IMG/VR virus record: IMGVR_UViG_3300029355_000102
Origin: a virus
Length of the DNA: 64,000 nt
Reading direction: 5' to 3' (one strand)
The first letter of the stretch is position 1, and every line of letters starts with the position of its first letter. The notes beneath the pieces are model-generated. The model did not search any database. It saw nothing but the letters and a program-made list of their open reading frames with translations, and was not told the origin of the DNA. Both the position numbers and the translations under genes were made by a program. Below, in pieces: positions 1 to 64,000 of this stretch.

Positions 1-511
1 GATCAGGATGGAGCTGGCGCAGGACTTATGGGATGATTTAATGACTCATACCGCGGTTCTTAAACGTATCGGCCATTCCCTCTATCCGACTGTGACGGAT
101 GATAGTACGGTTATTGCCAATGCACAGAATGAAGATGAAGACCGCCTGAAAGCCATTTTCAAGAAACTGGTTAAGGTGGATGAAATCGTGCCACGTGACA
201 GCTATGCTTTTGTTGACAAGCCCGGTAAGGATGCGGACGGACAACCTGATCTTATCACTGAACAAGTGGAGAACTTCAAGGCCACCAATATTGCCTTTAT
301 ACCAGTAGGTCAGATCGGTACTATTCAAGGTGTGGAGCCTTTGACTTTGGGATATGAGGCAAACAAGGTTGCTTCTTATGACGGTGGACGCTTGAAACTG
401 ACACAGAGAGCCAATCCTGAAACACATTCAATCTATATTGAAAGTGAAGCCGCCCAAATGTGTGTGCCGAGAATGCCACAGTATATGTTCATCTCTACTG
501 TAACTGTGTAA
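1..511 (+). CDS. phage structural protein, 5'-truncated at window edge (frame open upstream of nt 8)
   Basis: ORF 8..511 has no stop upstream to window start; first gene of a co-oriented virion operon. Confidence 0.4.
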   Translation, partial: IRMELAQDLWDDLMTHTAVLKRIGHSLYPTVTDDSTVIANAQNEDEDRLKAIFKKLVKVDEIVPRDSYAFVDKPGKDADGQPDLITEQVENFKATNIAFIPVGQIGTIQGVEPLTLGYEANKVASYDGGRLKLTQRANPETHSIYIESEAAQMCVPRMPQYMFISTVTV

Positions 512-530
512 TTCTTAAACTCATGCAAGA

Positions 531-905
531 ATGAATGAGGAACTTTCTCATACGGAAGATATGACCATTGAGGACTTTTTGAGTGGCGCAACTGCTTATG
601 AAATAGCGGACAACGCCCTCAAAAGGGTTCTTGTCAAGCGGAAAATCGCTTTTGGAACAATGGTAAGTGAACTGACCGAAAGGCAGCTTGATCTTGCCAC
701 TGCCGATATTTACATGTGGTGTGCAAGCACTCCAAGCAGTAAGAATGATACCGAAGACAGTGACGGGGGATGGAAGCATAAGGAAGGGGGTTGGCAGACC
801 AGTGCATACGACAAGCGGCAACTCCGTGAAATGGCGAAAGAACTGTATGAGAAATGGGATGAAGAAGTTGTAAAGGGCACTAAAATCAGAATAGTCAATT
901 TTTGA
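531..905 (+). CDS. hypothetical virion protein (head-tail joining region)
   Basis: 124-aa ORF tightly packed in structural operon. Confidence 0.4.
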   Translation: MNEELSHTEDMTIEDFLSGATAYEIADNALKRVLVKRKIAFGTMVSELTERQLDLATADIYMWCASTPSSKNDTEDSDGGWKHKEGGWQTSAYDKRQLREMAKELYEKWDEEVVKGTKIRIVNF

Positions 906-1231
906 GTATGAAAGTAAATAATCCACGGCATCCGCACAAATGTACTGTTTACCGAATTATAGGTGAGGATTCTTTCAGTGATGGTGAGAAGGTGATCTTG
1001 TATGAAGGTATATGCCGAAAGGAAGGTAGTACAAATTTGCGGACATTCAAAACCGATAATGTGATAAAGAGCGATTATCTGTTGAGCCTTCCCGGAATTG
1101 TTGAAGGAATATTGGCCGGTGATCTGATAGATGTCACGGACAGACAAGGCACTTTCACTCAATGTATGGTTACTGATAGCTATGCCGGAAATTTGGGAAC
1201 AACTGTGTATTTCAATCTTGCAAAAAATTAA
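902..1231 (+). CDS. hypothetical head-tail adaptor-like protein
   Basis: 109-aa ORF, ATGA overlap with upstream gene. Confidence 0.35.
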   Translation: MSMKVNNPRHPHKCTVYRIIGEDSFSDGEKVILYEGICRKEGSTNLRTFKTDNVIKSDYLLSLPGIVEGILAGDLIDVTDRQGTFTQCMVTDSYAGNLGTTVYFNLAKN

Positions 1232-9088: not shown

Positions 9089-9591
9089 TTATGAACAGAT
9101 TGAATAGTGAATTGAGAGGCCATGCCGTATCGTATGGCCTCTGCACACAATGGCAAGGTGACTGGCAAAATAATAAAAGTCAGCAGGAACTAATTGAAAT
9201 GTATATACGAGGCATTGATTTTTGTATTGAGCACGATTATCCGACAGTGGAATATATAAAAGGTAATTTTGACCGGAGTCTGCTTCATCAAAACCATATT
9301 TTTGTTGATGAACCAGTGACCGGAGGCAACAATGGTGTATATGTACTGAACGGTAAATGTTCAGGTAAACTTTCTTTCGGTAAATTTACAGCTGCTACTC
9401 TCCATTTGCGCCATGATAGTGAATTGACTCTTGAAGTGGAAGATTGCGCCAAAGTTTTTGTGAGTGTATATGATCGGGCTAAACTACATGTAAGGCAAAG
9501 CGATGTGGCTAAAGTTTATGTATATGTTCATGGTAAAGATTGCCAAGTGCAATATGAAGGTTACGTGTTGATAAGAGAAAGCCGAGAATAA
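9085..9591 (+). CDS. hypothetical tail protein
   Basis: 168-aa ORF overlapping tape-measure stop (ATGA). Confidence 0.4.
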   Translation: MIMNRLNSELRGHAVSYGLCTQWQGDWQNNKSQQELIEMYIRGIDFCIEHDYPTVEYIKGNFDRSLLHQNHIFVDEPVTGGNNGVYVLNGKCSGKLSFGKFTAATLHLRHDSELTLEVEDCAKVFVSVYDRAKLHVRQSDVAKVYVYVHGKDCQVQYEGYVLIRESRE

Positions 9592-9600
9592 CCCCCGACT

Positions 9601-10047
9601 TTATTTTCCAGTCACACGTTTTGTCAAATAGAACTTGTGAGTTTTGTCTAAGAATACAACGTAAAATGTATCGCCAACCACATGACCGATAATTACTGCC
9701 GATCCATTGATATGTATTCTTGCCCAATTTGCATCTTCCGGTACATTTTTGGGAAATTCAAAAAGGGTCTTTTCTTTTGGTGGAAATGAACCATATATTG
9801 TGAATTTATCTCCATCTATCTGTTGACGCAACGGAGAACAGCAATAACCATGTAGCGTTTCCAATGCGAAACTTAACAACCCTGCGTTTTGCCAGTCCTT
9901 AAAAGCCGAGCCATATTTTTGTGTAGTGTCAAGATATTGGAATGAAATTTTAAAGTTTGAAGTCCGGGCTTCATCATTCACACTTGGCTTCTTCTTGTAT
10001 GGTTCGGCTAATTTGGATTTCTTTTTATACCCCTGCATTTTGTTCAC
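9601..10047 (-). CDS. hypothetical protein; candidate toxin partner of the Panacea-domain protein
   Basis: 148-aa ORF overlapping the upstream DUF4065 gene by 23 nt (translational coupling); no recognisable domain. Confidence 0.35.
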   Translation of the reverse strand: MNKMQGYKKKSKLAEPYKKKPSVNDEARTSNFKISFQYLDTTQKYGSAFKDWQNAGLLSFALETLHGYCCSPLRQQIDGDKFTIYGSFPPKEKTLFEFPKNVPEDANWARIHINGSAVIIGHVVGDTFYVVFLDKTHKFYLTKRVTGK

Positions 10048-10531
10048 TCTTATAGAATGCTTGTACCGTTTTCTTTGAAATTATTTCATGACATTTATCT
10101 GCCTCTGCATAGCCAATACGTGCTTCAAGCCACGGACGTTCATTGTGCGTAGCTCTTTCCAGTTCCAATCCCGTCCAAGTAGATAGGTCTGTCAAAATAG
10201 AAACAATTAAAGTTTGTTGGTCTTGTGTTAGCTTTCCAAATTCCTTATCTACATCTTTTCCGGTAGAATTTGAATAGCTCAATTCCGCATACAGCATAGA
10301 TTTGTCTTTAAGACTATCGTAAACTTTACGACTAACGGGGCCATGCACCCATGCTTCAAAAGAATCTTCGACTAACTCTTGATCGAAATATGCAAGATGA
10401 TATGCATCACAATAAAAAAGTAGCTTTTGCAATTTTAGATGTGACATCGGTCCATAGTGCTTTAGAATATAGTCAGAAAGCACCACAGAATCTATTTTTT
10501 GAAGTTCTTTTGTCTTTTCCATTATAATCAT
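10025..10531 (-). CDS. Panacea-domain (DUF4065, SocA-like) antitoxin-type protein
   Basis: motifs LSHLKLQKLLFYCDAYHLAYF ... FEAWVHGPV typical of DUF4065/Panacea. Confidence 0.6.
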   Translation of the reverse strand: MIIMEKTKELQKIDSVVLSDYILKHYGPMSHLKLQKLLFYCDAYHLAYFDQELVEDSFEAWVHGPVSRKVYDSLKDKSMLYAELSYSNSTGKDVDKEFGKLTQDQQTLIVSILTDLSTWTGLELERATHNERPWLEARIGYAEADKCHEIISKKTVQAFYKSEQNAGV

Positions 10532-10821
10532 CCTTTGAATAATACAAAGGTAGCGCTTTTTTATATAAAATCAAAGAAATCATGTCTATTTAACTTGCTT
10601 TCTTACTTTTAAAGTCAAAAATAGAAGTTGTTGACTGATGTAGTATTATGTGCAATGAAATTGGTTACTTGATTACTTTTAATCATTTTAGAGATTGTCT
10701 ATGTTTAAAATATTCCGTATATTTGTGGCAAAGACAGAGGTCTTGTTTTTATTGCGTCAAAGATTGCATTAAGTATTTTTAATATGCGTACTACTTAAAA
10801 TATGAAGTGTTTTATAAAATA

Positions 10822-10829
10822 AGTAGTAT
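10822..10829 (+). promoter_or_regulatory. Bacteroides-type -7 promoter element TAtaTTTG
   Basis: exact match to TAnnTTTG consensus about 7 nt upstream of the putative sRNA 5' end; a second copy at 10716-10723. Confidence 0.35.
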
Positions 10830-10835
10830 ATTTGT

Positions 10836-10960
10836 GCCCGTAACAAGAAGGGAAGGCTTGGTGCAATCGACATACTACGAAGTTTGAGCCAGTCGTGGCT
10901 ATTCTTAATATATCGCCTGCAACGTCCTTCCCCTTTGGTTGCAGGCTTTATTTTTTTTCT
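10836..10960 (+). ncRNA. candidate small RNA (about 125 nt) bounded by promoter and terminator
   Basis: no ORF; -7 box upstream; 3' end is a 9-bp GC stem (gcctgcaac/gttgcaggc) followed by tttatttttttt. Confidence 0.35.
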
Positions 10961-11337
10961 AAAGCCTTACTTATTAGCGGTTCTATCAGTGCCCACCGCG
11001 CGGACTTGTCACCCGTGAGATAAAAAGGCTCTTTGTCACATAGGATATATCAAAGTAAGATTAAAACCTCAAAGCTGATCCGCTTACCATCAGGAGGTCA
11101 ACCCAAACAACATACATTCTTGCTTTGAAGAATGGCACCGGAGAAAGTGTTGCTTATAGTGGCTGGTTTATTTCTCTGAAAATTCAGAAAAATCGAGTTT
11201 TTGACAATATACACATAGTATAAAGAGAAATAAATAAAAATCTCCTGAACTTGCTTATATGTATGTTTGGGAGAAAAGGGTAAGAAATAGTATGCAAGTA
11301 AAATATAAAAAACATTGTATGAAGACAAATCAAGAAA

Positions 11338-12044
11338 TGGTGCGATACATTGATAGTTTTTCTGTGGTTCAGCGCACGAGTGATGGTTATTTTGACGGAA
11401 CTGAATTGCTTCGGCAGTGGAATAATGTAGAAGGGAATCCGAGAAGGCAAATGAGTAAATTCTTAGAATCTGATAATACATCAGAGTTTTTGAAAGCTCT
11501 TGCAGAGGATGAAAGCCATAGAGCAAAAATGCTCATTGGTGAAAATCAACTACTTATAAAAGTTAAGGGTAGAAATACGAAAGAAGGCAAAACACCCGAT
11601 AAAGTTTGGATGAATCCGCTTCTGTTTATCAAATTTGCTATGTGGATAAATCCGTCTTTTGAAGTCAAAGTATTACGGTTTGTGTACGATGAAATGATTC
11701 GCTATCGAAACGATGCCGGGGATGCTTACAAAGAACTTGGCTCTGCCGTTCAGAAGATAGTTCCTAAAGAGTTTATGCCGAAAGCAATGCAAAAGGTTGG
11801 GGAAGCATTGAATTGGGTTGTGTTTAACTCACATGAGAAAATGCTTCGCAACAAGCAGGGTGATGAAAGCAAACAACGCGAACTGTGGCAGCTTGAAAAG
11901 AAGGTGGCTGATTTAATCAACGAGGGATTCATTACCAACTTCGATAATTTAATATCATACCTTAGAAAACAATATTCAAAAAGGAACTATCCTGCCGTGT
12001 TCCAATTACAGCAAGAAAATACAAATTTTATCCACTATAAATAA
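11338..12044 (+). CDS. KilA-N domain protein (antirepressor-like)
   Basis: DGYFDGTELLRQW ... WMNPLLFIKFAMWINPSFEVKVLRFV matches KilA-N; ORF track start 11259 probably too early. Confidence 0.55.
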
Positions 12045-12053
12045 TAAATCAAT

Positions 12054-12485
12054 ATGGAATTAGTAGAATTTATGAGCAACAAAGAATGCGTTGTAGAAAC
12101 ATTCAAAGTAAATGGTCTTATTGCAAAAGACAATACGGTAACAGAGAAAGGTTTAATGGCTATACAGTTCTATTTAGATATGATAGAGCAAAAGAAGCCA
12201 GAATTAGAAAATTGTCAAACGGCTTATATGTCATGTAGTGAGGTGGAGGAATGGGAAAAGAAAAACGCTGCGGCTTCGGTAAGTTTTGACAGCGGAGGGG
12301 TAGTCGAGTTTCTCCCGATAGAAATGTTCTCAAAAGATGCTAAAATAGAAAAGGGAGGTGGCATAAAAGGTATGCTTATTTCAATGTGCGATTGCGCATG
12401 TGAAGATGAAATATCCGAAATAGTATCTTCAAATGATGAAATTCGTAAATTGAGAGATGCGCTTAACAAATATCTCGAAAGCTGA
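12054..12485 (+). CDS. hypothetical protein
   Basis: 143-aa ORF co-directional with KilA-N gene. Confidence 0.35.
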   Translation: MELVEFMSNKECVVETFKVNGLIAKDNTVTEKGLMAIQFYLDMIEQKKPELENCQTAYMSCSEVEEWEKKNAAASVSFDSGGVVEFLPIEMFSKDAKIEKGGGIKGMLISMCDCACEDEISEIVSSNDEIRKLRDALNKYLES

Positions 12486-12588
12486 ATACTTTTGGCTAAG
12501 AGTGGCAAAATGCACAAATAAATTGGGCTGACTTCGGAGCCAGCCCTAATCTTGTCAAAATAGAATAAAACATTCCATGCGTCTATTA

Positions 12589-12987
12589 CTATTTCTTTTT
12601 CAATTTAGCATAGTTATATAATGTAAGTGTTTTATCATTCATATTTAAACTAAAAACCATTCTTTTTACATCATTTATTACAATAAAAGTGGTGTAATCT
12701 TCTGATGCAATATTATAGTTCCAAGTCCCATTATCAATGTCAAAGTTTTCTATTTTGACAGTTTTATCGGGATTGAATGTAAATTTAGCATCAGAATATC
12801 CCCAATTTGCATCTACCCATATACCACTTATACTATTCCACAAATGCGTAACTTTCCATACTCCAATAATATTTTCATCAAGCCACTCTTTATTTTTATC
12901 AATATAGATATTTTCTTTCTCATTATCAGATGAACACGATGTAAAAAGCATAGATAATATGCTAAAAATAAGTATTATATTTTTCAT
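12589..12987 (-). CDS. lipoprotein (lipobox FTSC)
   Basis: signal peptide MKNIILIFSILSMLFTSC then hydrophilic beta-rich domain. Confidence 0.55.
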   Translation of the reverse strand: MKNIILIFSILSMLFTSCSSDNEKENIYIDKNKEWLDENIIGVWKVTHLWNSISGIWVDANWGYSDAKFTFNPDKTVKIENFDIDNGTWNYNIASEDYTTFIVINDVKRMVFSLNMNDKTLTLYNYAKLKKK

Positions 12988-12988
12988 T

Positions 12989-13375
12989 TTAATTCTGTTT
13001 ATGTTTTGATTTGTAAATAAATGCAGCTTCTGTGATTGTTGCTAATGCTTTCAGTATTGGCATCGCTATTATGTTGGATATTATTCCAGCCAGTCCTATT
13101 ATGAACCACCCCAAATGACGTTCTATTTTATAGGCTTCAAATTCACATGCAAATAGCGTAACAACAAAGATTAAAGCTGATATGATAAGCATTATCACTG
13201 ATAAGTCATATAATCTCCTTAATCCTATGACACCACTTCCTGAAAATTCAAGTTGGTTTTCATTATTAGATTCAACTATTGAACTATCTTTTTTCTTTAT
13301 TGGGTTATACCCACAATACTTGCAAATGGTAAAACTGTCATCATTTGCACATCCACATGATTCACATTTCCACAT
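12989..13375 (-). CDS. zinc-ribbon membrane protein
   Basis: N-terminal CxxC...CxxC then two predicted TM helices. Confidence 0.5.
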   Translation of the reverse strand: MWKCESCGCANDDSFTICKYCGYNPIKKKDSSIVESNNENQLEFSGSGVIGLRRLYDLSVIMLIISALIFVVTLFACEFEAYKIERHLGWFIIGLAGIISNIIAMPILKALATITEAAFIYKSKHKQN

Positions 13376-13378
13376 AAC

Positions 13379-13600
13379 CTATATATCTAAATATTTAATG
13401 CCAAAGTAAAAACCTAACACCACTACAAAAAGTACGTATAGTGGCAATAGCCATGACCCTCCGAAAACACTAAAGCAAATCAGTAGAATCACTACTATCC
13501 AAACTAAAACTCCTAACATATAATAACCTCTTTTATAATTAAATACAAAAGTATTAATAAATAAAATTATGGCAAATGATATTTTTATGTTTTTCAACAT
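13379..13600 (-). CDS. small membrane protein
   Basis: 73 aa, highly hydrophobic, 2-3 TM segments. Confidence 0.45.
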   Translation of the reverse strand: MLKNIKISFAIILFINTFVFNYKRGYYMLGVLVWIVVILLICFSVFGGSWLLPLYVLFVVVLGFYFGIKYLDI

Positions 13601-13728
13601 ACATGTGGAACTAAAGTGAAGTTTGAGTATAATAATCTACTAAAAAATATTTTTATGGTATTATTTTCTATGATAATATAGAAAATACAACTATATTTGC
13701 GTTGAAATAAGATTAAAGTATAAGGCCA

Positions 13729-13778
13729 TAGAGCTTGTTGTGGAGACTAAATATCTCTGCGGCAAGCTCTTTTTTTAT
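13729..13778 (+). terminator. hairpin + T7 terminator/insulator at right edge of moron
   Basis: agagcttg...caagctct stem followed by ttttttt. Confidence 0.4.
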
Positions 13779-13780
13779 AT

Positions 13781-14299
13781 GTGTATATGAACGAACCGTA
13801 TTCTATTTTGATGCAGAAAACTACCGAGAATGCTCCGGTCAAAGACAGCTTGGCGCATTTTGGAATTGTGTGCACTGAATTTCCGTTCAAGCCGGGTGGG
13901 GAAACGAAAGATTTACCCAAACGGGATTGGTCGGATGAAGACGGTGAAGATACTTACATACCCGACAAGCTACCATTAAAAGCATACGACTTGGAGGCCG
14001 AGATGTGCTATAAGGGGGATTTGGGTACTGCATACGATAAAATTATGGCCTTTCAAAACTATCTTACGGGAGAGAATGGTGACGGTGCCACTTTGAAAAT
14101 ATATAACTCGCACACGGGTATCGGGCGACAAGGACTTTACTTGCTGGAGGTTGGAGATTTTGAATTTAACAAGTCCAATATGGATGAAGTCTTGACCTTC
14201 CCGGTAAAATTTAGAGTAACTGATCCTCGAACTCAAATAATCCCCTCGTATAGTGTTGCGGAACCGACAAAGATAGTTGCATTGGTTGAAAAAGTATAG
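13781..14299 (+). CDS. hypothetical distal tail protein
   Basis: 172-aa ORF resuming + strand tail operon. Confidence 0.4.
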   Translation: MYMNEPYSILMQKTTENAPVKDSLAHFGIVCTEFPFKPGGETKDLPKRDWSDEDGEDTYIPDKLPLKAYDLEAEMCYKGDLGTAYDKIMAFQNYLTGENGDGATLKIYNSHTGIGRQGLYLLEVGDFEFNKSNMDEVLTFPVKFRVTDPRTQIIPSYSVAEPTKIVALVEKV

Positions 14300-19637: not shown

Positions 19638-20957
19638 ATGGCAACTAAAGGATTAGGAAATGAAACATTGGTGACCTCCATTCTGCGTTCCAATACAGTA
19701 TTGGTGGAAGTTGGTGGTAGTGTCAGACGCATTACCGTGGAAAACTTCATGAATGCTATTAATAATGGTGACGAACAAATGTTGAGGCAGGTGGCTTGGG
19801 GGATTCCAATCAAACAATCAACCCAAAGTAGCACGAACTATGGTGTGATAGGTAATACAGCCGCATGGACAGAATACAAGTTGTATTGTGGCCGTTATCT
19901 CGTAACGAATGATGGAAGGGCTGCTAAAATGTCCCCTACCAATAGTGCGGTGTTTGCTGATGGTACTGCGGTGGATGAAACCAAAGGGCATGTGATGTGG
20001 ATAGGGCCACGTTTGTATTATCGTGTACAGACTGACAGTGTAAGTGGTGTACCAGTCTTATGGCTCTCGATGCTACCTATTGGCGGTGAGTTTATTGGTG
20101 GGGCAAATGGTGGAATGTATAACTGTATCGGTGCATACAAAGGCTCCATGTCAGGTAGCGCACTTGTTTCACGTTCAGGAGTTGCACCGGCAGGCAGCAA
20201 GACAATCAACGCATTTTGGAATGCTGCACAAGTGAACGGTAAGGAATGGGGACTGACCGATTACGATCAGAGAAAGCTTATTATGATGTTGGGGCTGTCC
20301 CAGTACGGAGATACCAATATTCAAGCCAAACTTGGTTATGGTGTGGGTGGTAGCTCCAGTAAAGACTTGTGGGCTGCTGCGGCAGCATTGCAAACTGGCG
20401 CAACAAAGAGTCTCGGTGACAATTGGGGCAAAATAGCTATTTCTGTGGTGAATGGAAGTAATACTGGAGTGGATTGTTCACGGGTGAACATGATGGGTAT
20501 AGAAGATCCTTATGGGTGGCAGTGGGAATTTCTGCAAGGAGTATTTTGCGGTAGTTCCAACAATAGTGCTCAAAGTGGAACGGAAATTTTCATTTACAAA
20601 GGAAACCGTTTACCGACTACTGCTGAATTAGCTGCGCATCCAAATGGTGAATACAGACAAGCTACCCGTCAGACAGCTTCCGGTCAAGTGCAGGAAATAA
20701 TTCTTGGGGAGCATTTTGATATTTTCCCGAAAAAGATTGGTGGAAACAGCACTTCTTATTGGGCTGATTATTCATGGGCAAACACTACTGGGCAGCTGGT
20801 TCTTTGGGGCGGTAATGCGAATGACGGTGCGAGTTGCGGCCTCGCTTATGCGAACTCGAATGCCGATTGGTCGCGCTCGCTTGCGTCTTTCGGCTCTCGC
20901 CTTGCGTATTTTGGGAATTTAACATTTGTTAGCGGTGCATCTTTGATGGCTGCATAA
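19638..20957 (+). CDS. DGR target protein 1: tail fibre/receptor-binding protein with C-terminal variable region
   Basis: 439-aa ORF; its last 108 nt of coding sequence (VR1) are a near copy of the downstream template repeat, differing only at TR adenines. Confidence 0.8.
   Translation: MATKGLGNETLVTSILRSNTVLVEVGGSVRRITVENFMNAINNGDEQMLRQVAWGIPIKQSTQSSTNYGVIGNTAAWTEYKLYCGRYLVTNDGRAAKMSPTNSAVFADGTAVDETKGHVMWIGPRLYYRVQTDSVSGVPVLWLSMLPIGGEFIGGANGGMYNCIGAYKGSMSGSALVSRSGVAPAGSKTINAFWNAAQVNGKEWGLTDYDQRKLIMMLGLSQYGDTNIQAKLGYGVGGSSSKDLWAAAAALQTGATKSLGDNWGKIAISVVNGSNTGVDCSRVNMMGIEDPYGWQWEFLQGVFCGSSNNSAQSGTEIFIYKGNRLPTTAELAAHPNGEYRQATRQTASGQVQEIILGEHFDIFPKKIGGNSTSYWADYSWANTTGQLVLWGGNANDGASCGLAYANSNADWSRSLASFGSRLAYFGNLTFVSGASLMAA
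20794..20901 (+). repeat. DGR variable repeat 1 (VR1)
   Basis: 108/108 nt alignable to TR 21081-21188; 11 mismatches, all at TR A positions; shared GC-rich 3' end ggctctcgcc. Confidence 0.85.
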
Positions 20958-21080: not shown

Positions 21081-21188
21081 AGCTGGTTCTTTGGGGCGGT
21101 AATGCGAATAACGGTGCGAATTGCGGCCTCGCTTATGCGAACTCGAATAACGATTGGTCGAACTCGAATGCGAATATCGGCTCTCGCC
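21081..21188 (+). repeat. DGR template repeat (TR)
   Basis: non-coding copy rich in AAT/AAC; every VR1/VR2 difference maps to an adenine here. Confidence 0.85.
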
Positions 21189-33419: not shown

Positions 33420-33814
33420 TATTCTTCAAATTTAGGTTTTGGCATCCATGCTATCGGTTCCCATGACGGAGGTATGCTGCTCATTGAAGAGTAAATTGGG
33501 TTACCTTTGTACGTGTCATAGATATAACCATCCATGCAGAACCATACATTGTTGCTATATGTGCCGTTAAAAATCGCACCATGTTTACATAGAATGATGA
33601 TGTCTTCATTTTCATCCGGCAACTGTCCCTTCACGCTTATCCAAGGTGATTGCTTTGACTGCCAGTCAGCACCTTTTATAAATGCAGATTCTGCAATTTC
33701 ATCATGAGATAAATATGTAAAATCATCAAGTGACGTGTGTGTGCCATAAGTAGTTAATGTTTCGGCACTTGTCATCCTTGCTTCCTTTGCCGCTTCTTCT
33801 ACTGTCTGTTTCAT
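33419..33814 (-). CDS. hypothetical protein
   Basis: 131 aa. Confidence 0.3.
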   Translation of the reverse strand: MKQTVEEAAKEARMTSAETLTTYGTHTSLDDFTYLSHDEIAESAFIKGADWQSKQSPWISVKGQLPDENEDIIILCKHGAIFNGTYSNNVWFCMDGYIYDTYKGNPIYSSMSSIPPSWEPIAWMPKPKFEE

Positions 33815-33816
33815 AT

Positions 33817-34503
33817 CTATTTATCAAATAAATTAGTTTGAACCAACGTTCCTCTCTCTGTTTTTATCTCCCCAAAACATTCCCGGTGAAAACGTTCTTC
33901 TTGTGCTTCAAAGTATTCTTCATCTATTTCAGTTGCATAGAAATCGAATCCAAGTCCATAAGCAGCTATTCTGCTACTTCCTGAACCTAAATGACTATCA
34001 AAAATTTTGTCTCCCTCTTTGGCGTTTTTTCTTAATATTTCAGCATATAATTTCACTGGCTTCTGACAACGATGGATATTTCCACCTCGTTCTCCAATTG
34101 TACACCGGTTTAGAGTTATGATCCGAAGAGCTTTGTCAAAACTACTCCATGCCAATTCTCCGTCAGACATTGTTAGTCCATGTTGCCCCTTATCCCAGAC
34201 GATCCAACCCATTTTAGGAGGCAGATGTTGAGTAAAATAGTTGCCACCGAAAATTATTTGATTCTTACTCACTCTAAATAACTCCTGAAAATATCTTTTG
34301 CCAGGTGGTTTCTTGTCCCAATCCTTGCGTTTATACTGCTTAAAGCCTAAATGCTTCGGCATCCCACCCTTGTGCATTATGTCTATGCCATACTGGGGAT
34401 CGACTATCGCTGAGTCCTTACTTTCATTTTTTTTTGATACATTTTCCCAGTTTAAGTATAAATACACATTCGTTATCCGGTGCTCCCCAATTGGTGTTAC
34501 CAA
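33817..34503 (-). CDS. beta-class N6A/N4C DNA methyltransferase
   Basis: DPQY (motif IV) upstream of FDSHLGSGSS (motif I), order typical of beta-class amino-MTases. Confidence 0.6.
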   Translation of the reverse strand: MVTPIGEHRITNVYLYLNWENVSKKNESKDSAIVDPQYGIDIMHKGGMPKHLGFKQYKRKDWDKKPPGKRYFQELFRVSKNQIIFGGNYFTQHLPPKMGWIVWDKGQHGLTMSDGELAWSSFDKALRIITLNRCTIGERGGNIHRCQKPVKLYAEILRKNAKEGDKIFDSHLGSGSSRIAAYGLGFDFYATEIDEEYFEAQEERFHRECFGEIKTERGTLVQTNLFDK

Positions 34504-34801
34504 CTCCGATGGTTATAGATTCAAGTTCAAAAAGCATTGTCCGTTTGGTGTAGCCAAAACGGAAGCAAACATGAGTGTATTCTTTGGGGTGAAAGCCGTT
34601 TCCACGTGTAATACAAGAAAAACAAATAGCTTTCTTACAATAGAAACCAGTCTTTTCATAGGAATTGCGACCTCCACATTTTGCTAATCTTCCGATCCAG
34701 TATTTCTTGATCTCTCTGTATTCTTCTTTCTTATTTCCGGATTCGATCATTTCATACCATTTTGCTTTTAATGGCAGGTCAAGGATTTTCATATTAACCA
34801 T
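34424..34801 (-). CDS. ASCH-domain protein
   Basis: MKILDLPLKAKWYEMIESGNKKEEYR N-terminus typical of ASCH. Confidence 0.4.
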   Translation of the reverse strand: MVNMKILDLPLKAKWYEMIESGNKKEEYREIKKYWIGRLAKCGGRNSYEKTGFYCKKAICFSCITRGNGFHPKEYTHVCFRFGYTKRTMLFELESITIGVGNTNWGAPDNECVFILKLGKCIKKK

Positions 34802-35035
34802 AGTCTAAAAGAGTTGCGGATTCTGTTTGTCGTGAAGGATTTTTTGAACACGTTCAATTTCTTCATCTACTTCACGCTCAATTTGTTTACTTATTCGTAA
34901 ATCTATCTGTCTCTTATTTTTGAAATATTCTTTTTGGCAACGGCGCATTTCCACCACTTTGTCGAAAAATTCTTTTGGAGTCATAGATTTAAAAGGTATG
35001 GAAAAGGCCGCTTTGATGCGGCCTCCCCAGTGTGA

Positions 35036-35620
35036 TTACTTTTTTCCAATCAGAAAGTCTTTCCACAATTCTTTGAATTGTTCTCCAAAGTAAATTGCGA
35101 TTTCACTTGATTTTACAGCAAGGCGAGAGCCGATACCCGCATACGAGTACGACCAATCGTTATTCGAGTACGCACAAGCGAGGCCGCAATACGCACCGTG
35201 ATACGCATTACCGCCCCAAAGAACCAGCCGATTACGATCCTCTTCGTCCATTTCATCAATTTCTTTTTGATTATAAAGATAAAACCACGGCGTATAACGG
35301 TATTCATCTTTAGTAAATCGTGGAAAATCAGGATCGTTGTTTAACGCACGGGCAATAGTGCATAGTTTGATGTAGGCGAGGTGTGCAATATCAGCCACTT
35401 CTTCTTTGTGTCCGTCTTCATCTTCAACAAGTAGGCGAACAATGGGTTTTACACCTATTGCTTCACAAGCATCTTCGTAGGTTTTAATATTGTGATAATC
35501 TGTATAATCCGGCTTTTGCTTTCCGAATAGGGCTGTTAGAATACTAATTGCTTTAGGACAGTCGTTTGCTTCACTAAAAGCGGCTGTTACCTTTTCTTGT
35601 GTGATTTTAAGTTCTGACAT
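35036..35620 (-). CDS. DGR target protein 2 (194 aa) with C-terminal variable region
   Basis: C-terminus LWGGNAYHGAYCGLACAYSNNDWSYSYAGIGSRLA encoded by a TR copy differing only at TR adenines. Confidence 0.75.
   Translation of the reverse strand: MSELKITQEKVTAAFSEANDCPKAISILTALFGKQKPDYTDYHNIKTYEDACEAIGVKPIVRLLVEDEDGHKEEVADIAHLAYIKLCTIARALNNDPDFPRFTKDEYRYTPWFYLYNQKEIDEMDEEDRNRLVLWGGNAYHGAYCGLACAYSNNDWSYSYAGIGSRLAVKSSEIAIYFGEQFKELWKDFLIGKK
35121..35228 (-). repeat. DGR variable repeat 2 (VR2), opposite strand to TR
   Basis: reverse complement aligns over 108 nt with TR; 11 mismatches, all at TR A positions; identical ggctctcgcc 3' end. Confidence 0.85.
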
Positions 35621-35628
35621 AATGTAAA

Positions 35629-36381
35629 TTATTTATTGTTAATACTATATCCGAATAATGCAAAATCTCCCCGGCACGGATCATCCGGGAAAATTGTTTT
35701 CATGTAATTGGTTACTTGTTGAACCATTTTCCAGTCCTCTGTTTTGCGTGTTGTTATCCCAAGCTGATGTGCCATTTTTGCAACATGCGCATCCAATGGT
35801 ATGTATAATTCTGTTGGATGAATAATAGTCCAAATACCTAAATCCACCGGCGATTTTCGTACTACCCACCGTAGAAACAGACAAATACGCTTGCATGGAG
35901 AATCACGCTCCAATTTTGGAATACCTTTTACGCCACCAAAATCTGTTTGTATTTCACGGATAACATTGTTGTAACCCTCATAAAATACTTCCAAATCATC
36001 CCATTCCTGATATATGTTGTACAACCGCTGGCAAATGCAGAAGAAGTCATGGTAGGTGAACATACGGTAGAAGGTATTTGTATTTTCTTTGTATTGTTCC
36101 CATACTTTGTTCATAATGAAGTCATAAGGAGAATTACCCATTAGATTATCCAAAATTTCTGCTTGCTGCATTATCAGTTTGCGATTCCCGAAAGCTATCC
36201 ATGAAGTAAGAAAGGCACTGATTTCTATGTCCTTTTTATCACTGTACTTATGTGGGAAGAATATAGGATCATCTTTTATAAAATCAGGTGTTTCAAATTG
36301 TTTTGCCCAGTCAAGTAGTTTGTTTCTTAGTTCTTCCATAATATTCTTCTTTCCATTTTTTGAAAGCGGCTTCTTTATCAT
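35629..36381 (-). CDS. DUF2400/TIGR02757-family protein
   Basis: 250 aa; FIKDDPIFFPHKY...EISAFLTSWIAFGNR signature. Confidence 0.4.
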   Translation of the reverse strand: MIKKPLSKNGKKNIMEELRNKLLDWAKQFETPDFIKDDPIFFPHKYSDKKDIEISAFLTSWIAFGNRKLIMQQAEILDNLMGNSPYDFIMNKVWEQYKENTNTFYRMFTYHDFFCICQRLYNIYQEWDDLEVFYEGYNNVIREIQTDFGGVKGIPKLERDSPCKRICLFLRWVVRKSPVDLGIWTIIHPTELYIPLDAHVAKMAHQLGITTRKTEDWKMVQQVTNYMKTIFPDDPCRGDFALFGYSINNK

Positions 36382-62346: not shown

Positions 62347-62689
62347 ATCTTTTAAAATTTAAAATTACACATTTTTTTGAACTGATAGGGAAAAAAGGGA
62401 GAAAAACTTTTTTTATTCTCACGGCTCTTTCATTTAAGATCGGCCTAAGATATCCAAAAGATGTGTATTTTTAGCGAAAATGCCTAACTTTGCGCACAGC
62501 GATGCCGAAGCACCGCCTTCGGTGTTTCTTTATCATATAAATAAAAATTTTTAAGAGGCGGAGTGGCCGTGAAGGCTCTTCCGCCTCGATTTTCGCTATG
62601 CGAAAATATGCGTTAATTTGCTGATTTACAACTTTTTCGATTTAATATACCTTAAAAAGAAACACCGTTTTTGCCCGTCGGGCAGCATC

Positions 62690-63826
62690 ATGGAGAGACT
62701 GCAGGATTTTGCCTCGTCAGTCCCAGATTTCCGTAGATCAGACAAAGGGAACATACGCCACCGGCTCGAAGACATCATCATGCTGATGGTGCTTGCCCGT
62801 GCCTCAGGATGCGTAGGCCGAGCCGATATAATAGAATTCGGCAGGCACAATATCAATAAATTCCGCAAGATGGGGATGTTGAAGAAAGGTGTTCCCTCGG
62901 AAGCGACCCTATGCCGAGTGGATAATGGCATCAACGATACGGTCATGGCAGACAGAATGCAGGAGTTTGTCGAAGTGTTCCATGCTCGATTGCTCAGAAC
63001 TGTCCCTTGTAAAGAGATAATCTGCATCGACGGCAAAGCCGAGCGTGGTACGGTTCAGGAAAACGGGCGCAATCCTGATATAGTGTCGGCATATTCTTTC
63101 AATACCGGCATCACACTGACAACAGTGGCCTGTCAGGAAAAAAGCAACGAGATAAAGGCCGTCCCGCAGCTTATTGACAAGCTCAATATCACAGGAAAGG
63201 TCGTCACAGCCGACGCCATGTCCATGCAGAAGTGCATCATTGACAAAATCAGGAAGAAAGGAGGTGATTTCCTGATAGAACTCAAGGCCAATCAGCCTTC
63301 CCTGCGCTACGGCGTGGAAGACCGACTCGGTGGACTGTCACCGGTTTATACATATGTCGAAGGACCGGAACTCGGGCATGGCAGAATCGAGACCCGTACT
63401 TATCGTGTCTACGACGGGCTTGAAGTCATAGCAGACAAGGAGAAATGGGGCGGAAACATGACGATAATAGAATATGAAGCCGAAACGGTGAGGAAGTCAA
63501 CGGGAGCGCGTACCTCCGAAAAGAGGTTGTATGTGAGCAGTCTGCCTACCTGCACACCGGCTCTTGGGGCATATGTGCGAAAACATTGGTCTATAGAAAG
63601 CATGCACTGGAGTCTGGATGTCAATCTGCTGCAGGACAGCATTAAGCGCAAATCCTTCAAGGCGGCGCGGAATCTTGATACCATCCAGAGAATTGTCTAC
63701 TCAGTATTTTCAATATGGAAAGGCCTTCGTAAAAAGTGCTCCGACAAAAAGAAGGGGCTGGCAGAACTGATGAGACATGTCTCAATGAGCTTTACCCGAC
63801 TCCTTCGGTTTCTAAAGCAAAAATGA
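62690..63826 (+). mobile_element. ISAs1-family (IS4-related) transposase
   Basis: MERLQDF...HRLEDIIMLMVLARASGCVG N-terminal DDE_Tnp_1_assoc signature; DGKAERGT, DAMS, HWSIESMHWSLD. Confidence 0.75.
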
Positions 63827-63906
63827 AAAAAATAAAATTTTGACAGAAAGATAAATTACTGACATACAACATCAAAAAATTACCCGATTCACAAGAGGAT
63901 GTAAAT

Positions 63907-63960
63907 TAAACTGTGTCAGCAAGGAATAAAGTATTAACTTTGCTAACACAGTTTTTTTTA
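63907..63960 (+). terminator. rho-independent terminator
   Basis: aaactgtgtcagcaa...ttgctaacacagttt long hairpin followed by T8. Confidence 0.5.
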
Positions 63961-64000
63961 TGAAAGAAGAATTTGATTTCGAGAGTATCAAGAACAAGGC

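Follow-up and report, generated by a model that had tools for sequence, protein, structure and literature searches.

The question raised by this locus is whether the DGR of a gut phage rewrites, from a single template repeat (TR), both a variable repeat (VR) in a tail protein and a second, remote VR that lies on the opposite strand inside a small early gene, and, if it does, what the product of that gene might be. The locus was examined in a 64,000 nt stretch of viral DNA (IMG/VR record IMGVR_UViG_3300029355_000102), which is referred to here, at its full length, as the window. A second target had been proposed in an initial annotation made from the sequence alone, and the features concerned are as follows.

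19638–20957, plus strand: ORF of the VR1 host gene, encoding a 439-aa tail protein (phrog_5302 match)
20794–20906, plus strand: VR1, at the C-terminus of the 439-aa tail protein, with 13 differences from the TR, at adenines
21081–21193, plus strand: TR, the template repeat, with 26 adenines in 113 nt and ten AAY codons plus TAT, GAT and ATC in the VR frame
21194–21473, plus strand: spacer between the TR and the reverse transcriptase (RT) gene, assigned by position only and presumed to be part of the TR-containing RNA
35117–35229, minus strand: VR2, the remote variable repeat, a 113-nt match to the TR with mismatches at adenines only, encoding residues 131–168 of the 194-aa protein
35036–35620, minus strand: VR2 target gene, encoding the 194-aa protein (from the ORF list; phrog_11581 match)

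A repeat search recovered direct copies at 20794–20911 and 21081–21198 and an inverted copy at 35117–35228. The inverted arms (21082–21193 and 35117–35228, 112 nt) are 90 % complementary, and 35117–35228 is 86 % complementary to the direct copy at 20794–20911. When the TR (21081–21193) was compared base by base with the reverse complement of 35117–35229, 12 differences were found in 113 nt, at TR positions 21081, 21107, 21110, 21119, 21135, 21140, 21161, 21167, 21173, 21174, 21189 and 21191. All 12 are adenines in the TR, a placement with a hypergeometric P of ~2e-9 given 26 A among 113 bases, and the window therefore contains none of the non-adenine mismatches that, according to the initial annotation, would speak against a second target. 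The match first reported, between the TR and the reverse complement of 35121–35228 over 108 nt, is real but falls short of the full extent of 113 nt (35117–35229), and the 11 differences then counted are indeed confined to adenines but number 10 over the 108 nt, 11 when 35229 is included and 12 over the 113 nt. It had also been stated that VR2 differs from the TR at other positions than VR1 does, which is incorrect, as VR1, too, departs from the TR at seven of the 12 positions, with a different base from that in VR2 at five of these and the same base at two (A21189T and A21191G). The TR and VR2 are 13.9 kb apart (previously rounded to 14 kb). The minus-strand ORF of 194 aa at 35036–35620 exists and the peptide quoted from it was correct, but GIGSRLA is not the C-terminus of the protein, as 26 more residues (VKSSEIAIYFGEQFKELWKDFLIGKK) lie downstream of the variable segment.

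Both VRs read the AAY codons of the TR in the same frame, and the ten AAY codons together with the three codons containing a single A could yield ~3.7e13 protein variants without stop codons. The possibility that VR1 and VR2 resemble each other through gene conversion was weighed and rejected, because each VR departs from the TR at adenines only and the two VRs differ from one another at most such sites. A 60-aa ORF in the spacer (21194–21473) has no protein family match.

The phage from which the window derives is Bacteroides phage LoVEphage, also named "Quimbyvirus", to which it is 97–99 % identical. Two 3.5-kb probes, one covering the VR2 region and the other the TR/RT cassette, match six GenBank phage genomes at 96.8–99.1 % identity, namely four LoVEphage records, Bacteroides phage BI-TP1 and Phocaeicola phage PV4-TP1, and the window and PV4-TP1 share 96–98.8 % identity across ~42 kb. 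With at least 95 % nucleotide identity to the reference genomes over most of the genome taken as the criterion, all belong to one species. The two published names also converge, as passages in Van Espen et al. 2021 (PMC8525569) and Benler et al. 2021 (Microbiome 9:78, PMC8008677) report alignment at ~95 % identity of LoVEphage and of Quimbyvirus, respectively, to the same Bacteroides dorei prophage (CP011531.1). LoVEphage is described as temperate (PMC8525569; PMC12629997). Passages in PMC8008677 further describe a Quimbyvirus RT encoded in three overlapping frames and two VRs, one in a gene of the tail module, behind the tail fibre genes, and the other distal, on the opposite strand, amid defence and counter-defence genes (methyltransferases, a MutY-like nuclease and a tRNA ligase); for genomes of >95 % ANI, 22 adenine sites are given as variable. 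The two-VR architecture is restated in a passage of Dahlman et al. 2025 (PMC12629997), which cites both earlier papers for LoVEphage and places a second, distal VR near counter-defence genes in four gut prophage species.

VR2 was therefore published for this same phage in 2021 and its detection here is a rediscovery. The architecture of the window is the published one, in the same phage species, and the two-target DGR of LoVEphage/Quimbyvirus, being already known, adds no new kind of system. Two differences from the published accounts were found. The genome in the window has an additional, private frameshift in the RT, and the label of C-type lectin domain protein, which the LoVEphage/Quimbyvirus papers, as far as their relevant passages go, attach to the second target, was not reproduced by structure and profile searches with the window protein. 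A family-wide DGR codon signature, described below, was not found in the passages of those accounts covered by a literature survey that was not exhaustive.

The RT is encoded immediately downstream of the spacer.

21474–23016, plus strand: DGR RT, as ORFs 21474–21788, 21788–22288, 22149–22484 and 22432–23016 in successive frames

Conceptual joining of these ORFs gives a protein of 514 aa that matches the RVT_1 profile over positions 16–203 of 205 with 47 bits, the 166-aa ORF alone scoring 23 bits, which is below the cut-off, and the IGxxxSQ motif is visible in the translation (as VPIGAFTSQ). In relatives, the RT occupies frames 0, +1 and +1, with ORFs at -327..498, 361..694 and 629..1226 relative to window position 21788, and two frame changes (at 22149–22288 and 22417–22484 in the window, from the comparison with loci L057–L073) are kept at the same places in phages whose RTs are only 56–60 % identical; the more distant loci L072 and L073 have only the second. 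At the first junction there is always a purine-rich stretch resembling AAGAGG(T/G)G just before KRGVPIG, where the window has no homopolymer run, and at the second a Lys/Arg-rich linker precedes I(N/D)FLGY. One distant phage bearing a member of the 194-aa protein family (locus L176) has a single-frame RT of 453 aa. The third-frame RT ORF (22432–23016), which also happens to be 194 aa long, includes a C-terminal extension of ~110 residues that has no Pfam match and is conserved in relatives (ending LGDGKSAYYFEE); it could be an accessory domain replacing the missing Avd. No Avd/HRDC accessory gene was recognised by Pfam match among the ORFs flanking the TR and RT, and a divergent accessory protein is possible.

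Whether the A-derived sites of VR2 vary independently, and whether homologous phages keep VR2 at all, were put forward as checks in the initial annotation. VR2 is present in 27 LoVEphage-like genomes that share >93 % protein identity (the window, BI-TP1 and 25 IMG/VR contigs) and in a diverged relative with 83 % protein identity. Among the 27 genomes, 24 of the 26 TR-adenine positions in VR2 are variable, with a mean entropy of 1.48 bits, while the means are 0.019 bits for the other 87 VR2 positions and 0.037 bits for the remaining 472 positions of the gene, and there are 24 distinct VR2 alleles. VR1, compared at 37 loci, has 1.49 bits at TR-adenine positions and 33 alleles; hence the situation that was to count against VR2, invariance while VR1 varies, does not obtain. 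The TR itself shows no differences among 26 of the 40 related loci compared. The diverged relative (contig IMGVR_UViG_3300045988_122938) is particularly informative, as its TR carries four non-adenine substitutions, all four of which are also found in its own VR1 and VR2 (comparison of the L057 TR with the L026 VR2 and the L057 VR1), and this recurrence is direct evidence that VR2 has been overwritten from the TR. In public clusters built at 90 % identity, the VR2 protein is represented by 14,127 and 37,449 distinct sequences in two clusters and the VR1 protein by 42,382, and the flanking genes by 429 to 1,876. The initial conclusion that one TR serves both the tail protein and the remote 194-aa protein is thus upheld by the adenine-only mismatches, the adenine-specific hypervariability beside a conserved TR, the concerted evolution of TR, VR1 and VR2 in the diverged relative, and the common AAY frame.

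Five non-adenine VR2 positions also vary among the loci compared (L001–L028), corresponding to TR positions 21087, 21109, 21127, 21134 and 21175. The T at 21175 is altered in four of the 27 genomes and the other four positions in one genome each. Positions 21109 and 21175 each lie between adenines and 21134 is followed by one, a pattern that may stem from occasional misincorporation beside adenines.

The 3' end of the variable tract and its surroundings include two further features.

35117–35133, minus strand: VR2 3' boundary, IMH type (TCGGCTCTCGCCTTGCT, compared with TCGGCTCTCGCCATACT in the TR)
35001–35028, minus strand: terminator-like hairpin, 8 nt past the stop codon of the VR2 gene, with 11 pairs, seven of them G-C, followed by a T-rich tail

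The changes at the two 3'-most TR adenines, A21189 to T and A21191 to G, are fixed in all 27 VR2 and all 37 VR1 copies (64 in total), unlike the TR adenine at 21176, which varies among the VR copies. The GC-rich TCGGCTCTCGCC is followed by TTGC in 64/64 VR copies and by ATAC in the TRs instead, and this fixed boundary inside TCGGCTCTCGCC-TTGC/-ATAC appears, by analogy, to be of the IMH/IMH* type, with the role that this would imply. Directly after VR1 or VR2 there is no GC-rich hairpin of the BPP-1 type (folding z-scores of -1.8 and -0.2), and the only hairpin near VR2 is the terminator-like one ~90 nt downstream. A downstream hairpin or cruciform is not universal among DGRs. At the other end of the tract, position 21081 is G in 23 VR2 copies and A in four, as though the replaced tract had no constant 5' limit.

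Two readings in which VR2 is no longer rewritten were weighed against these data. VR2 could be a fossil copy of a VR/TR segment that is no longer rewritten anywhere in the phage species, a reading in line with its remote position on the opposite strand, the lack of a cruciform-type hairpin after it and the additionally broken RT of the window. However, VR2 is as variable as VR1 at TR adenines (1.48 versus 1.49 bits) and nowhere else, near-identical genomes carry almost as many alleles as there are genomes (24 in 27), the non-adenine positions of VR2 follow the TR in the diverged relative, and the VR2-protein clusters hold tens of thousands of distinct sequences. At the level of the phage species the fossil reading is therefore rejected, and we consider the chance that it is correct to be very slight. 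It is a separate matter whether the DGR is dead in the genome represented by the window, with VR1 and VR2 as snapshots of past diversification. A G after 21783 that is present in every relative examined is missing here (ATAGCG to ATACG), splitting the first RT ORF, which is intact at 816 nt in GenBank LoVEphage, PV4-TP1 and BI-TP1, into pieces of 104 aa and 166 aa. This private 1-nt deletion is the only frame-disrupting coding indel in the 20 kb aligned to PV4-TP1, and it recurs in four separate assemblies, each matching the window at 100 % identity over 6–7 kb; samples ERZ28637050, ERZ28637206, SRR5056901 and JGI 3300029332 carry it. Hence, it is a real mutation and not an assembly error, and, as it splits the RT, the current VR1 and VR2 alleles may be frozen; the exact VR1 and VR2 alleles of the window were found on 15 and 11 contigs, respectively, which would fit an inactive element. 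Against a loss of activity, the pieces overlap at a stop/start TAATG, so that no more than some two residues are lost; coupled translation could supply both pieces, which might then reassemble, and the RT is in any case made from several frames. Moreover, the recurring alleles may represent one strain sampled repeatedly, given that several of the samples share the prefix VCHO16-1, and the deletion motif had no match in the genome, viral and metagenome contig collections. We judge the case for a dead DGR in this genome to be evenly balanced.

The 194-aa protein is acidic (pI 5.0), has no signal peptide and no transmembrane segment (maximum 19-residue Kyte-Doolittle hydropathy 1.24), and is small and probably cytoplasmic. 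It belongs to no Pfam family and its sole PHROG match, phrog_11581, has no assigned function. The variable segment comprises residues 131–168. An AlphaFold model built on a 60-sequence alignment is mostly helical, with a pLDDT of 83, and leaves residues 142–163 of the variable segment unmodelled, and a single-sequence AF2 model (pLDDT 38) was unusable. Neither a C-type lectin nor any other known fold was recovered by Foldseek against the PDB, by hmmsearch against PDB sequences, or by Pfam scans of 60 family members at E <= 1, and the matches in BFVD are to uncharacterised phage proteins only, some of them from crAss-like viruses. When profiles of the protein and of the C-terminal domain of the tail target were compared, the alignment was confined to the 42 VR columns (97 % probability); the targets have the variable module in common but differ in scaffold. 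The published C-type lectin label is neither borne out nor contradicted by these results.

The gene for this protein is the last of a minus-strand unit and is followed by the terminator-like hairpin. Its upstream neighbour is the following.

35629–36381, minus strand: DUF2400/TIGR02757 gene (Pfam E = 5.8e-68)

The stop codon of the DUF2400/TIGR02757 gene lies 8 nt before the ATG of the VR2 gene, in the same orientation, and the two are therefore probably co-transcribed. Other genes on the same strand encode C5 and N6/N4 DNA methylases, RtcB, RecT, an exonuclease and SSB, and genes for a DUF551 protein, a radical SAM protein and a Holliday-junction resolvase are also nearby.

Some differences in gene content around this region were noted. 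A 26-kb contig (ERZ940270; locus L170) encodes exactly the VR2 protein allele of the window and has different genes downstream (window 34400–35036), including a PAPS-reductase cassette that is also found in BI-TP1 and PV4-TP1 and is absent from the window, which suggests persistence of the allele across recombinant backgrounds or recombination nearby. The aligned part of PV4-TP1 lacks window positions 9535–13380 and 33513–34410. At the end of the window (region 62618–64000, with an ORF at 62618–63826), the terminal 107 nt are 100 % identical, in inverted orientation, to PV4-TP1 sequence just past the annotated CDS of an IS256-family transposase (12946–14160), which is at a different genomic position, and the window probably has the same mobile element at another site.

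A profile search of 1.84 billion cluster representatives (clusters formed at 50 % identity) returned 1,396 relatives of the 194-aa protein at E <= 1e-3. Most are stand-alone proteins of ~190–200 aa, and in a few the family domain forms the C-terminus of a protein of 290–360 aa, the N-terminal part of which belongs to no Pfam family; a Pfam scan of ten longer proteins with the family domain gave nothing usable. A match to Tad2-like (Thoeris anti-defence 2) in the N-terminal extension of P0143 (244 aa) was rejected, as E = 0.0011 and 19.9 bits against a cut-off of 25 are too weak to use, though the match would be in line with the idea of counter-defence. The distant member P0142 was found on 1-kb contigs only. 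A search with a sub-alignment of distant members showed that at least 583 IMG/VR loci encode relatives. The neighbourhoods of 80 retrieved distant loci were counted, in which the family gene shares its strand with genes for replication and recombination, with the following neighbours.

278-aa protein without a Pfam match: 60 of 80 loci
SF2 helicase: 31 of 80 loci
YqaJ exonuclease: 28 of 80 loci
Metallo-beta-lactamase-fold protein: 24 of 80 loci
RecT: 20 of 80 loci
Toprim-DnaB primase-helicase: 19 of 80 loci
SMC-like ATPase: 18 of 80 loci

A TR was found within 10 kb in only five or six of the 80 distant loci; at three (L138, L144 and L152) another VR accompanies the TR, which is ~9 kb distant and on the other strand. 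Codons of 76 different distant members were compared at the columns that correspond to the AAY codons of the window. Most of these columns (140, 149, 151, 153, 154, 158, 160, 162 and 163) are 99–100 % NNY, against a background of 50–58 % pyrimidine at third positions, have an amino acid entropy of 3.0–3.4 bits, and alternate with invariant GCG/TCG codons. As read from the codons, this alternation is the design signature of a DGR target. A pattern search in one genome (IMGVR_UViG_3300031992_000093) located a TR and a VR1 ~12 kb from the VR2 in the family gene and adjoining a single-frame RT of 453 aa; all VR2-TR differences there are at adenines, and the three repeats are on the same strand. 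The same search with a second distant member (the L131 contig) recovered only the VR itself. Remote TRs from which the VR differs at adenines alone were thus verified in lineages other than that of the window. The family as a whole thus appears to be a DGR target that is usually remote. Locus L137 has three family genes within 20 kb and locus L141 two copies with a common 290-nt repeat.

Like the DGR of Bordetella phage BPP-1, which diversifies the Mtd tail fibre, the system in the window combines TR to VR transfer and adenine mutagenesis with an AAY codon design, a GC-rich 3' element that takes different forms in VR and TR (IMH versus IMH*) and a tail-fibre target adjoining the TR and RT. The BPP-1 DGR has a single target, the Avd accessory protein, an RT in a single ORF and a GC hairpin past the VR, whereas the window has two targets, one of them remote and non-structural, a frame-shifted RT and no detected Avd or hairpin. 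Bacterial multi-target DGRs with remote VRs were reportedly described by Wu and colleagues in 2018. In such systems, both bacterial ones and those of the four gut prophage species described in a passage of PMC12629997, one TR and RT serve several VRs, some of them far away, and the window does not differ from these in principle but is one such case. Also comparable are the tentaclin DGRs (Baykov et al. 2023, PMC10743442), which are found in gut phages and have two functionally different targets with a common hypermutated module. However, the tentaclins have an N-terminal C-type lectin domain and, after it, immunoglobulin domains, and are proposed to be receptor-binding proteins (PMC10743442), and the 194-aa protein is small, mostly helical in its model, lacks Ig domains and is encoded in the replication module.

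The best explanation of these findings, in which we have high though not complete confidence, is that VR2 is a genuine second target of the LoVEphage/Quimbyvirus DGR, with the mechanism and role that follow. The phage RT would reverse-transcribe the TR-containing RNA, misincorporating at random opposite adenines, and the cDNA would then replace a homologous 113-nt tract, either VR1 next door or VR2 13.9 kb away on the other strand, with the replaced tract ending inside the GC-rich element TCGGCTCTCGCC. The difference between TTGC in the VRs and ATAC in the TR would keep the flow of information one-way. This mechanism of diversification is well supported at the level of sequence, the individual retrohoming steps being drawn from the BPP-1 paradigm. 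For the protein, we infer a cytoplasmic localisation, early expression and a role in binding or counter-defence. It would be a product of the early replication/recombination and DNA-modification module, and its variable patch would most likely bind a polymorphic factor of the host or of a competitor, in counter-defence or host take-over, a role suggested by the gene neighbourhood. As a variant of a cytoplasmic early protein would be expressed in the infected cell itself, the linkage between genotype and phenotype would be kept, which fits selection for binding a polymorphic intracellular partner.

Two other roles for the 194-aa protein can be considered. It might be an accessory of the virion or of receptor binding whose gene lies apart from the structural module, with VR2 serving host recognition as VR1 does, as the two proteins have the 42-aa variable module in common and, according to passages in PMC10743442 and PMC8008677, known phage DGR targets are overwhelmingly structural. 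Yet both in the window and at the 80 distant loci the gene lies amid replication and recombination genes on the same strand, and the protein has no homology to the tail protein outside the VR and no anchoring domain, making such a role decidedly unlikely. Alternatively, the protein might be expressed from the prophage as a hypervariable sensor of competing phages, acting in superinfection exclusion or defence and not in counter-defence. The phage is temperate, and roles for DGRs in prokaryotic immunity have reportedly been proposed in one study, but neither the 194-aa protein nor its fusions include an effector domain, the gene is within an apparent lytic early operon that ends in a terminator, and no partner gene is conserved across the family. 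We think a sensor improbable and favour a binder of intracellular factors produced early in infection.

LoVEphage is among the most prevalent gut phages and inducible isolates are available (BI-TP1, PV4-TP1 and the Dahlman collection). What remains of interest beyond the published architecture is a scaffold that is possibly not a lectin, the breadth of the family, and a natural lineage with a frameshifted RT that is usable as a control. The phage DGR targets characterised so far are nearly always receptor-binding proteins of the virion, and diversification of a non-structural early protein by a DGR would mean accelerated evolution of an intracellular binding protein, plausibly against variable host defences. 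We tentatively suggest, while rating the odds as somewhat against it, that the 194-aa protein is one of a large and unnamed family of dedicated DGR targets, usually remote, whose members are small and probably cytoplasmic and have a scaffold not recognisable as a C-type lectin. If this were true, the family would constitute a new kind of DGR variable protein with its site of action within the infected cell, where it might, for instance, bind factors of host defence or replication in a programmable manner.
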